A stretch of DNA of 64,000 nucleotides from a virus (Duplodnaviria; Caudoviricetes). Positions within the stretch are counted from its first letter, which is position 1. The number at the start of each line of letters is the position of its first letter. The stretch covers positions 128,001-192,000 of the IMG/VR virus record IMGVR_UViG_3300042013_000067; one strand, written 5' to 3'. A model generated the notes under the pieces. It ran no database searches, was not told the DNA's origin, and worked only from the letters and a program-made list of their open reading frames with translations. Position numbers and translations under genes: made by a program. This document shows, piece by piece, positions 18,841-51,839 of the stretch.

Positions 18841-18877
18841 ACATACGGCCCTCCCCTAGCGGGAGGGCTTTATGCCG
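18841..18877 (+). terminator. Terminator
   Basis: GCCCTCCC-CTAGC-GGGAGGGC-TTTATGCCG. Confidence 0.8.
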
Positions 18878-18964
18878 AGAATTACATTGGGTAGTAATCT
18901 AGTGCTGGGCATTCCAGTAGATCCCGCATCGGGACATCACACATACCCCACATAGGGCCGTCAC

Positions 18965-47407: not shown

Positions 47408-47980
47408 ATGAAATGGTTTTCTGCTGTATTATTGACAGCACTCGCGTTAATGGCTAGTCCAGTATGGGCTGGCTGTGATCTGTCCCAGTCCGGCGTACCG
47501 ATTGCGGTGCGTGGGCAACTGGAGACGCAGTGTCTTCAGGCTGAAGCGAAGCTCAAAGAGCAAGCCCAAGTCACCGATGCACAGAAGCTTTCGGCTTATG
47601 CTGATGTCGCTACCCAACTCGCCAAGGCGGTGGGTATTGCAGCGAATGAGCTGGGCGTAGCTGTGAACGAGTTCATCAAGACCCCGGCGGGTATCCTGAC
47701 CATTGCGGTGATCTTGATTAAAGTGTTCGGTAAGCTGATGGCATTGATCTTCGTGGCTATCATTGTCTGGACTGCTGTGGCCCGTTTGCTGAAACACCTC
47801 TGGTACAAAGAGACTGGCGAGACGATGGAGATCAGTGGTTTCCTCGGTTTCGGCAAGAAAACGGTTCCAGTGCGCAAGCGTGTTACCTACAGCGAGGCTA
47901 CCGAAGGTCAGGTATTCATTACCGCATTATTGGTGCTCGCCGCCATCGGCTCCCTAATCCCAATTCCAATGTCCAGCTAA
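47408..47980 (+). CDS. Exported/membrane protein (signal peptide plus TM helices)
   Basis: GAGGAG RBS; signal peptide MKWFSAVLLTALALMASPVWA, Cys pair, three hydrophobic segments. Confidence 0.8.
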   Translation: MKWFSAVLLTALALMASPVWAGCDLSQSGVPIAVRGQLETQCLQAEAKLKEQAQVTDAQKLSAYADVATQLAKAVGIAANELGVAVNEFIKTPAGILTIAVILIKVFGKLMALIFVAIIVWTAVARLLKHLWYKETGETMEISGFLGFGKKTVPVRKRVTYSEATEGQVFITALLVLAAIGSLIPIPMSS

Positions 47981-49207: not shown

Positions 49208-49375
49208 ATGGTACCCTGCTTTAAACTATCGCCACGTCGCCTAGCGGCACTGGATGAGAAAGTAGATAACCGAGCTAAATCGCTGGCTATGGTTAAACGC
49301 TTCCAGGATGCACAGAAGCAATTAGAAAAGGTCTGTGCCGATAAAGGCATCCCTGTTCCAGTGATGGTCTGCTAA
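49208..49375 (+). CDS. 55-aa hypothetical protein
   Basis: AGGAGG RBS; MVPCFKLSPRRLAALDEKVDNRAKSLAMVKRFQDAQKQLEKVCADKGIPVPVMVC. Confidence 0.75.
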   Translation: MVPCFKLSPRRLAALDEKVDNRAKSLAMVKRFQDAQKQLEKVCADKGIPVPVMVC

Positions 49376-49383
49376 AATATACT
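49371..49383 (+). promoter_or_regulatory. Possible middle promoter GCTAAAATATACT (second copy at 47976-47988)
   Basis: Exact 13-mer occurs twice; resembles the recalled phiKZ middle motif AAnnnTAC. Confidence 0.45.
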
Positions 49384-49394
49384 GGACAGGTAAT

Positions 49395-49700
49395 GGTATA
49401 CGGGGATGGCGGTGATTCGCTATTCCTGTACATTAGCTCTGAGTGTTCCCCCAACCGGGCGCGTAGCCACGCTCATTAGCTTCTTAGCAACACGAAACCG
49501 TAGGGTCTAAACAGTTAGTCTGTTAACTGTGGACGATCTAGGAGGCGCAGCGCCAAACCCTAATAGGGTAGTAAGGGTAAGACAGATACTTATCCAAGCC
49601 GCAGCCCGACACCGAGCCGAAAGCGTACGTAGGCACTTGGCCACTGGGGTAATCAGTGGATACCGCTACTCTAGTTCCCCTGGGGTAGTGGTAAGCGAAA
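49395..49700 (+). ncRNA. Candidate ~300-nt structured ncRNA of unknown class
   Basis: At least five clean hairpins found by hand, no credible ORF, upstream AAAATATAC motif and its own downstream terminator. Confidence 0.6.
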
Positions 49701-49701
49701 A

Positions 49702-49736
49702 GCATAGCCCGCTCTTACGGGAGCGGGCTTTATGCC
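49702..49736 (+). terminator. Terminator closing ncRNA candidate A
   Basis: GCATA-GCCCGCTCT-TACG-GGAGCGGGC-TTTATGCC. Confidence 0.8.
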
Positions 49737-49803
49737 ATGTTTAAATAAAAGAAATACATTTTGTGTAATAGTATACGGTAGTGATTGCCGTTGTTTTGCA
49801 AAT

Positions 49804-49876
49804 TCCATGGTAGCTCAGTTGGTAGAGCAGCGCACTGTTAATGCGCGGGTCCGGTGTTCGAGTCACCGCCGTGGAG
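49804..49876 (+). tRNA. tRNA-Asn (GTT), CCA not encoded
   Basis: Acceptor TCCATGG/CCGTGGA, D arm GCTC-AGTTGGTA-GAGC, anticodon arm GCGCA-CTGTTAA-TGCGC, T arm CGGTG-TTCGAGT-CACCG. Confidence 0.96.
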
Positions 49877-49884
49877 CGATTTTC

Positions 49885-50150
49885 ATCGTTACTGTAAAAG
49901 GTAGCGAGAATTACCCTGATGCTCGGTTGCGTGGTATTACTGTCGTGGTGTACTGGGCAAACCGGAAAGAATCCCGAGAGTCGTGGTTCAGGGTGGACAG
50001 TTGTGGAGTAACTATCCATGGCAAACGAGTCGAGAATTACGCTGGCCAATCTGGTTAAACGTGGCAGCCTTTGAGCGGCCCCGCCTAATAGGGCTTCAAT
50101 GCCTATGGTCAGCACCCTTTAAGATCCTGTGGGCAACCACAGGGTTTTAT
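49885..50150 (+). ncRNA. Candidate ~265-nt structured ncRNA with a duplicated CGAGAATTAC motif
   Basis: Nested helices, two copies of a 10-nt motif, ending in a GCAA-tetraloop hairpin plus T tract. Confidence 0.55.
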
Positions 50151-50159
50151 TCCTTTTAT

Positions 50160-50266
50160 GGCTAGGAGCGGAGTTCGACTCTCCGCGGTGGTGGCCTTGG
50201 GTAGGCGCCGGTCCCGCTGGGATGGGCTTCGGAAACGACACAGAGGTTCGACCCCTCGCCTAGTCT
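50160..50266 (+). ncRNA. tRNA-like RNA with two TTCGA T-loops (pseudo-tRNA or Y-RNA-like)
   Basis: Closing stem GGCTAGG/CCTAGTC, T arms at 50168-50186 and 50243-50257, D-like arm GCC-TTGGGTA-GGC; no canonical anticodon arm. Confidence 0.65.
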
Positions 50267-50339
50267 TCTATTGGAGCATGCAATGCCAATCTACGAAGAG
50301 GTAAGAGTTCGATTGTGACCTTAACTGGAGCAATCGAAT

Positions 50340-50516
50340 ATGGCACGTTCAAGAAAAGAAGGCGGTACCCGGCGCGATGGTCGCGAATACTGGAGCCGTC
50401 GTCCTAACTGCAATGGTGCAGTGGGTAAGTTTGCCAAACGCATTATCCATGGTCAAGAGCGCTGTATCGCTAAAGACCTGACTCGTAGTGAACTGAAAGC
50501 TCATTTCTCGGAGTGA
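50340..50516 (+). CDS. 58-aa Arg/Lys-rich small protein
   Basis: GGAG RBS; MARSRKEGGTRRDGREYWSRRPNCNGAVGKFAKRIIHGQERCIAKDLTRSELKAHFSE. Confidence 0.8.
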   Translation: MARSRKEGGTRRDGREYWSRRPNCNGAVGKFAKRIIHGQERCIAKDLTRSELKAHFSE

Positions 50517-50579: not shown

Positions 50580-51839
50580 ATGCAACGCAAGACTTATGAA
50601 TTACTGGGTGGTGATACTCAAGCTGGATTCAAGCCAATTAAAGGCTGGACCATGGGTGTGCCAGTAGAGCCCGATGCCGTTAAACAGCTTAAGAATATAG
50701 CCTCGCTGCCCTTCATCCACTCGCATGTGGCGGTAATGCCTGACGTTCACGTCGGTAAAGGTGCGACCATAGGTACGGTCATCGCCACGCTGGGTGCAAT
50801 CATTCCAGCAGCGGTGGGTGTGGATATCGGTTGTGGCATGGCTGCACAACGTACCTCGCTAACCGCTAATGACCTGCCAGATAACCTGTCTGAGCTGCGG
50901 TCCTTCCTTGAGCAGTTGATCCCGCACGGGCGTACTGACAATGGTGGTGCGAACGATCGTGGTGCTTGGGGTTCTCAGGTAGCTCTGGATCACCAGATAG
51001 ACACAGTTCGTCTGGAAGCATCGCGTCTGCAGTTTGCACTGAATATGCTGGTGGCCAAGCATCCGAAGTTACAACGCGCTGCAGGCCGTGCATGGAATCA
51101 TTGCGGTACACTCGGCACGGGTAACCACTTCGTCGAGATCTGTCTGGATGAAGAAGACCGTGTATGGATCGTGCTGCACTCCGGTTCACGGGGCATCGGT
51201 AACGCCATTGGTACTTACTTCATCGATAAGGCCCAAGGTGAAATGCGGACACATCAGATCAACTTGCCTGATCGTGATCTGGCGTATTTGAAAGAAGGTT
51301 CGGTGTTGTATGCGGATTACCTCGATGCGATCAGCTGGGCACAGCGCTTTGCAGCATTGAACCGTACGGTGATGATGCATGCTGCTATTCAGGCACTGCA
51401 CATGTTCATGCAGCGGCCGATTGATTGTGATCTCGAAGCGGTCAACTGCCATCACAACTACGTGTCCCAAGAATACCACTTTGGTAACGATGTGCTGGTG
51501 ACGCGTAAGGGTGCGGTAAATGCACATGAAGGTTCGCTGGGTATTATCCCTGGTTCCATGGGGGCGAAGACCTTTATCGTCCGTGGTAAGGGTAATACCG
51601 AGTCCTTCTGTTCTTGCTCGCATGGTGCTGGTCGTGTGATGTCCCGTAAGGCGGCAGAGCGTACCTTCACCCTCGAAGACCACATTCGTGATACGGCTGG
51701 GATTGAATGCCGTAAAGATGAAGGTGTGCTCGATGAAACACCGAAAGCGTACAAGAACATCGATGACGTAATGTCCGCACAGGCAGAACTGGTCGATATC
51801 GTTCACACACTACGCCAAGTAGTTTGCGTTAAGGGTTAA
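50580..51839 (+). CDS. rtcB: RNA 3'-phosphate ligase RtcB
   Basis: AVMPDVH.G.G..IG, VGVDIGCG, LGTLGTGNHFVE, LHSGSRG.G, NCHHNY, GIIPGSMG, SCSHGAGR, DETPKAYK. Confidence 0.97.
   Translation: MQRKTYELLGGDTQAGFKPIKGWTMGVPVEPDAVKQLKNIASLPFIHSHVAVMPDVHVGKGATIGTVIATLGAIIPAAVGVDIGCGMAAQRTSLTANDLPDNLSELRSFLEQLIPHGRTDNGGANDRGAWGSQVALDHQIDTVRLEASRLQFALNMLVAKHPKLQRAAGRAWNHCGTLGTGNHFVEICLDEEDRVWIVLHSGSRGIGNAIGTYFIDKAQGEMRTHQINLPDRDLAYLKEGSVLYADYLDAISWAQRFAALNRTVMMHAAIQALHMFMQRPIDCDLEAVNCHHNYVSQEYHFGNDVLVTRKGAVNAHEGSLGIIPGSMGAKTFIVRGKGNTESFCSCSHGAGRVMSRKAAERTFTLEDHIRDTAGIECRKDEGVLDETPKAYKNIDDVMSAQAELVDIVHTLRQVVCVKG

Follow-up and report, generated by a model that had tools for sequence, protein, structure and literature searches.

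The tRNA cluster analysed here very probably encodes two separate conserved RNAs, the second of which (module 2) is likely to be a tRNA mimic, as judged from the comparison of related sequences. The balance tips slightly towards an explanation in which two unrelated non-coding RNAs are carried in a variable phage tRNA-cluster operon, with module 2 perhaps serving as a decoy and module 1 as a knotted RNA. Both were found in a stretch of 64,000 nt, in the following called the window, which is contained in a complete virus record of 283,622 bp from a Noxifer-like jumbo phage of the Pseudomonas type. The parts of the region between 49732 and 50149 are all on the plus strand.

Pseudomonas phage Noxifer is the nearest annotated relative, with the same succession of genes between thymidylate kinase and tRNA-Lys. 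The modules occupy a gene-free tRNA cluster, with tRNA-Asn(GTT) (49804-49877; identified by ARAGORN, 64 bits in Rfam, CCA not encoded) on the left and, on the right, a gene of 58 codons (50340-50516) with RtcB behind it. The 58-aa protein encoded next to the modules served to locate further carriers, and both modules were recovered from five more phages (L087, L098, L096/L097, L095 and L251). Identity to the window was 57-94% in module 1 and 61-88% in module 2. L251 was kept out of model building as a held-out test for both modules and scored 84 bits on the module 1 model and 77 bits on the module 2 model. The element is missing at this locus in Noxifer, L003, L099, L100, L104 and L249, and whole-genome searches with models R1 and R2 gave no match in Noxifer, phiKZ, 201phi2-1, phiPA3, Psa21, Phabio, RVTF4, Viktualia or DT01. 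Since the modules are absent from Noxifer and the phiKZ-like phages, they are dispensable. RtcB, an RNA ligase gene (50580-51839), is an optional cassette present in the window and in L087, which Noxifer, L098, L096 and L251 lack at this site; as it adjoins the modules in only some carriers, there is no obligatory link between them. The leader of the 58-codon gene (50283-50339) is better conserved than the gene itself, begins with a short upstream ATG frame and is a possible translational control element.

Searches of sequence collections placed both modules in one uncultured Noxifer-like clade, a narrow distribution. An Rfam scan of the region retrieved tRNA only, at the gathering cut-off as well as at E values up to 10, and blastn against annotated phages gave no match to either module. 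A paired-repeat pattern yielded 79 matches in IMG/VR, none fitting either module profile. Module 1 patterns applied to viral and GTDB contigs returned 95 (80 of them compared), 9 and 45 matches, none of which passed the profile or the model; in the viral, metagenome and bacterial collections screened by pattern, module 1 had no member beyond this clade. The module 2 pattern was not found in GTDB, low-stringency ARAGORN produced noise only, and no description of either RNA family was found in the literature. Modules 1 and 2 are two uncatalogued RNA families.

The initial annotation had described the region as one structured RNA built from two modules that start with the same 10-nt motif. Every motif it quoted was found exactly where it had been placed, and its view of a conserved structured non-coding RNA region is borne out by five relatives, in which the region is 57-94% identical and carries compensatory changes; the folding z-score was -2.5 compared to shuffles. 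Covariation, in counts that rest on about six independent lineages and are inflated by kinship, supports the terminator and 5' hairpins together with two long-range helices, the outer one of module 1 (49912-19/49988-95) and the one that closes module 2 (50041-48/50106-13). Other proposed helices had to be revised. The CTCGG/CCGAG helix is disrupted in L087 and L098, where 49960-65 is instead the partner that is conserved, and the inner helices of module 2 (GGCA/TGCC, TTGAG/TTCAA and GCCC/GGGC) are not part of the MFE structure, the relatives favouring a local 4-bp T-like hairpin. Loss of the structure in relatives and a genuine ORF at 49732-50058 had been named as grounds against an RNA; the structure is conserved, and the 108-codon frame is spurious, as proposed, being interrupted by stops in all forward frames of L087, L098, L096 and L251, overlapping tRNA-Asn and lacking a PHROG match. 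An obligatory tRNA-Asn trailer is not tenable either, as L087 carries tRNA-Asn downstream of module 2. The two modules are conserved but unrelated structures that do not match each other's covariance models. Two features had been overlooked: strand 49978-84 forms a pseudoknot with 50025-31, and module 2 has a tRNA-like anatomy.

Upstream of tRNA-Asn, at 49748-49776, lies a clade-specific promoter of the phiKZ middle type, composed of an A-rich TAC, 7 nt, GTAAT and GTATAC, which resembles the phiKZ middle motif AAanTTACc (PMC4666361). With a PWM trained on relatives only, this site reached 35.9 bits, the top score genome-wide, and together with the site at 49373 it occupies the first two ranks in the genome at 35-36 bits. 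We infer promoter activity at 49748, with a predicted precursor start near 49775. An intrinsic terminator-like hairpin with a T tract follows module 2 (50120-50149); in the relatives the hairpin is kept while its sequence is changed. Promoter and terminator would delimit one middle-period transcript from about 49775 to 50149 comprising tRNA-Asn, module 1 and module 2, and both RNAs are probably released from this tRNA-cluster transcript, in line with the initial annotation. Host RNase E would cut the A/U-rich, single-stranded spacer (50032-50040), a module 2 leader that includes most of the second repeat copy and measures 8-9 nt with variable sequence in 6/6 relatives. RNase P would generate the 5' end of module 2 at G50041, and 3' trimming to ACC would follow, possibly with completion of CCA by the host, while module 1 would be set free as a stable knotted RNA. 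These processing steps are inferred from what is known of tRNA processing.

The two-part promoter is highly conserved in the clade, and its two strong genomic copies (49373-49401 and 49748-49776) would both drive non-coding RNAs; weaker copies are located at 47978 and 56163. The RNA with its own promoter at 49373, candidate A (49395-49736), is larger, conserved, and present in more relatives than the element described here (candidate B), Noxifer included.

The exact 10-nt repeat itself is modestly unusual. Within 266 nt, 1.65% of shuffles contained a repeat of at least 10 nt, as did 26 of the 480 window segments of the same size, and the 10-mer has four genomic copies, all on the plus strand, versus about 0.13 expected per strand. 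The third copy in the window (18876-18885) is intergenic, directly follows a terminator and has a low promoter score. Between the two copies in the modules, 10/10 positions agree in both the window and L087, 6/10 in L251 and 4/10 in L098 and L096; the repeat is thus intact in two of five testable phages and copy 1 (49905-49914) is not conserved as a repeat. Moreover, copy 1 forms mostly the 3' strand of a hairpin and copy 2 mostly single-stranded spacer.

These observations bear on the function proposed in the initial annotation, a bivalent RNA in which both CGAGAATTAC motifs sequester a protein such as RsmA, Hfq or RNA polymerase. In its favour are the exact repeat, found in both the window and L087, the identical second copy of L095 and the enrichment of the 10-mer on one strand. 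Loss of the repeat in L098, L096 and L251 and the different structural roles of the copies argue against it, as does the fact that the modules are unrelated and separable, module 2 also occurring without module 1. The GGA assigned to a loop is paired in the MFE structure and in the conserved hairpin 50002-50020, and is lost in L098, L251, L096 and L095. RsmY/RsmZ sponges carry several conserved GGA motifs in loops, whereas here one to three GGA were counted, none unpaired in the MFE structure and none conserved, and no match was obtained at E values up to 10. Nor does the suggested likeness to 6S RNA hold: 6S RNA is a rod of about 180 nt with a central bubble, the fold found here is pseudoknotted or multi-domain, and again no match appeared up to E 10. 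The bivalent-sponge reading is largely refuted, and we regard it as very improbable.

Slightly less credit can be given to the repeats as internal phage promoters that would each produce one small RNA, a reading to which we assign the least weight. It draws on a resemblance to the phiKZ middle motif AAanTTACc (PMC4666361) and on the position of the third copy after the terminator at 18876. The copies score -31 and -12 bits on the clade PWM compared to 35-36 bits for the true sites, and these negative scores rule out the repeat as a promoter of this clade; furthermore, the copies are not conserved, and a start 24 nt downstream would land within conserved helices.

Module 1 (49882-50031) is, as predicted from its alignment, a pseudoknotted RNA; it matched no Rfam family and neither T4 rnaC nor rnaD. 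It opens with hairpin P0 (49882-49910), the 3' strand of which includes most of repeat copy 1; P0 is kept in 5/5 complete relatives, its sequence in L096 being unrelated. The core (49912-50031; six distinct sequences with 57-94% identity to the window) comprises the covarying helix P1 (49912-19/49988-95), an invariant UGC (49920-22), a long variable arm (49923-65) with an AAGA junction behind it, the pseudoknot (49978-84/50025-31), whose 3' strand lies beyond P1, and hairpin P4 (50002-20), which is followed by GCRAA. In the alignment of five sequences 97.7% of the cells were paired, compared to 33-43% in slid controls, and double changes affected seven pairs, four in P1 and three in the pseudoknot. 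Four pseudoknot positions vary, and 17 of their 20 combinations can pair versus a permutation mean of 12.2, and 4 of 120 permutations were as high; the pairing and permutation tests ignore kinship among the sequences. The held-out L251 sequence kept 8/8 pairs of P1 and 6/7 of the pseudoknot. A 3-bp pairing of the invariant UGC with the GCA at 50021-23 is feasible (U-G in L251) and shows no double changes; the same applies to a GUUA/UAAY helix. Most simply, module 1 would be a separate stable RNA with a conserved core, and this core probably binds a protein or ligand.

Module 1 is located directly upstream of module 2 in 6/6 phages, between the latter's 5' end and the 3' end of a tRNA or tRNA-like RNA (upstream side seen in five). 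This arrangement would suit a new self-cleaving ribozyme, or another cis-acting processing element, that helps to sever the polycistron at a point after the upstream tRNA 3' end and before module 2. The compact pseudoknot with invariant junction bases would fit such an activity. The 3' part of module 1, with its hairpin, GCRAA and pseudoknot strand, is reminiscent of P4-J4/2-P2 in HDV-like ribozymes; in 6/6 sequences GCRAA and then ACG occupy the places of the C-R-A junction and the P2 3' strand behind P4. HDV-like theta ribozymes process phage tRNA 3' ends, as reported for gut phages, and share with module 1 the placement of a pseudoknotted RNA 3' of a phage tRNA as well as the succession of hairpin, C-R-A-A and pseudoknot strand (PMC10879173). 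However, module 1 has no P3 with a 7-8-nt L3 and no P1.1, and with 3-4 nt from the pseudoknot strand to P1 there is no space for P3/L3. Its P1 does not begin at the tRNA 3' end but about 35 nt past it, and with about 150 nt the RNA is not minimal. An HDV descriptor remained empty in four of five sequences including the window, and its sole register, in L096, conflicts with the covarying P1. The C of GCRAA may pair with UGC instead. In addition, no Rfam ribozyme was matched, and module 2 also exists without module 1. Likenesses to twister, twister-sister, pistol, hatchet, hairpin and hammerhead motifs did not survive a by-eye comparison with the alignment, the elements being in the wrong order or not conserved. 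Because module 1 always directly precedes module 2, we keep the ribozyme reading as an unlikely alternative; equally doubtful is its extended form, in which nucleus-forming jumbo phages would use a new pseudoknotted self-cleaving class, or a ligand-sensing processing switch, to mature a tRNA mimic of 8/4 geometry that has no anticodon.

Module 2 (50041-50116) is a tRNA-like RNA represented by 11 copies of 73-78 nt. An acceptor of 8 bp (50041-48/50106-13) is followed by a D-loop-like segment (50048-59) with invariant UGGU and no D stem, a variable hairpin (50063-80) and a T-like arm of 4 bp (50091-50104); a bulged A (A50105) and an ACC tail (50114-16) are invariant in 11/11. Several double changes but no broken acceptor or T-stem pair were counted across all 11 copies. 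Instead of the canonical 7/5 acceptor-T branch, 11/11 copies have 8/4 plus the bulged A, keeping the total of 12 bp, the branch length that tRNA-handling proteins measure. The canonical D stem and a 7-nt anticodon loop with U33 are lacking; apical loops of the variable hairpin range from 5 to 13 nt with unrelated sequences, and this freedom in length and sequence means that there is no anticodon. Canonical tRNA has GG in the D-loop, U54-A58 in the T-loop and a discriminator followed by CC(A); in module 2 the T-loop U...A spacing is present in 9/11 copies, the exceptions being L251 and L095a, in the latter of which the loop is degenerate. The base after ACC is C or T and never A, so the terminal A is never encoded and ACC may therefore serve another purpose.

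Stand-alone copies of module 2 (L125/L134/L136 and L148) come from compost contigs and the complete genome G002, and L087, L096 and L095 carry second paralogues after the terminator. Module 2 is autonomous.

YrlA, a bacterial Y RNA, is a tRNA mimic that occurs in phages, often near RtcB. Module 2 shares the mimicry, but in YrlA the order is permuted to T-AS-D and a Ro60 partner is encoded less than 4 kb away, whereas module 2 has the normal order and no TROVE gene (RF02553; PMC4201824). It matched neither the YrlA model RF02553 nor, at E 10, the tRNA model RF00005, nor, at E up to 1, the tmRNA model RF00023, which scores ordinary tRNAs at 17-38 bits. No gene for a CCA enzyme, Ro60 (TROVE) or SmpB was found in the phage genome. 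Because of these missing model scores, the missing genes and the lack of a G3-U70 pair, module 2 is, as far as sequence comparison can tell, outside the tRNA, tmRNA and YrlA families yet built like a tRNA mimic.

The 12-bp 8+4 branch with one bulged nucleotide has precedents in allo-tRNAs, SelC* tRNA-Cys and irregular tRNA polycistrons, some from phage clusters and some non-translating (Mukai et al., PMC5389517). Those RNAs are cloverleaves with a long D stem, an anticodon arm, a long V arm, G73 or U73 and the bulge A51a, whereas module 2 has A73, lacks both the D stem and a 7-nt anticodon loop, and carries its bulge where the 3' strand of the T stem meets the acceptor. The T4 RNAs species 1 (rnaC) and species 2 (rnaD), stable tRNA-cluster products whose function is unknown (PMC3014915), likewise form a tandem non-coding pair in a phage tRNA cluster, and have tRNA-like 3' ends. 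They show no similarity to either model: rnaD encodes ACCA and rnaC has a canonical GTTCGAAT T-loop, unlike the 76-nt 8/4 module 2, and module 1 lacks a tRNA-like end. The nearest kind are such stable non-decoding RNAs of phage tRNA clusters, namely T4 species 1 and 2 (PMC3014915) and the CDS-less tmRNA of phage DS6A (PMC11915505).

The DS6A RNA inhibits host tmRNA (PMC11915505), and module 2 could similarly be a mini-tmRNA reduced to the tRNA-like domain that titrates SmpB and blocks ribosome rescue. A D-loop without stem (compared with E. coli and Pseudomonas tmRNA), the missing anticodon, A73 and a short T-loop starting with TTCAA are in line with this, AATCTGGTTAAAC recalling the D-loop analogue of E. 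coli tmRNA and TTCAAT its T-loop. However, G3-U70 is present in 0/11 copies, pair 3 being U-A or C-G in 11/11; the opening pairs are G-C and C-G rather than GGGG, the branch is 8/4 instead of 7/5, and CCA is not encoded. The tmRNA model that detects ordinary tRNAs ignores module 2, and model R1 did not match E. coli or Pseudomonas tmRNA. This reading is improbable. The segment 50021-50043 was rejected as the start of a tmRNA tag frame, as the frame is broken and Glu-Asn-Tyr is not conserved.

Slightly less probable still is a functionless, decaying tRNA-Leu-like pseudogene. G1-C72, C2-G71, A73 and the D-loop recall tRNA-Leu, the best T4 match of model R1 is tRNA-Leu (non-significant, 6.8 bits, E 1.4), and the distribution is patchy. 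Against decay, two paralogous subfamilies with identities down to 61% keep the unusual geometry with no broken pairs, which points to selection.

Module 2 would present a tRNA acceptor end and elbow without entering decoding. Since it combines these with the lack of an anticodon, a decoy suits it better than a decoding tRNA, a mini-tmRNA or a dying pseudogene. That it intercepts host tRNA-binding or tRNA-attacking proteins during infection is our tentative proposal, the most likely of these roles but held at clearly less than even chance.

Further tRNA-like RNAs populate these clusters. The window contains a third element (50160-50266) with an acceptor of 7 bp, a T-loop hairpin where the D arm would be and another T arm, of 4 bp with one bulged base; it has neither anticodon arm nor CCA and is known only from this genome and an identical contig. 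In the slot after the terminator, other relatives have different tRNA-like RNAs with swollen anticodon arms, a context in keeping with the mimic reading of module 2. Such genes, missed by ARAGORN, are found at L001:5820-5914, L003:3836-3934 and L087:1938-2020, and the swollen loops of Noxifer and L003 have the motif AGGCWAGCTGG in common. L001:5505-5690 and L087:2411-2480 are additional unannotated structured RNAs in tRNA clusters, the one in L087 ending in GCCA.

RNAs of unknown function have been recognized in phage tRNA clusters since T4 species 1 and 2. The two families described here are new, clearly bounded and naturally rich in compensatory variants. One is a probable tRNA mimic of 76 nt with an unusual, strictly kept 8+4 bulged geometry, the other a pseudoknot of 150 nt whose core is invariant. 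They bear on the questions whether non-decoding tRNA mimics may shield phages as decoys from defences that target tRNA and whether module 1 may constitute a new ribozyme.
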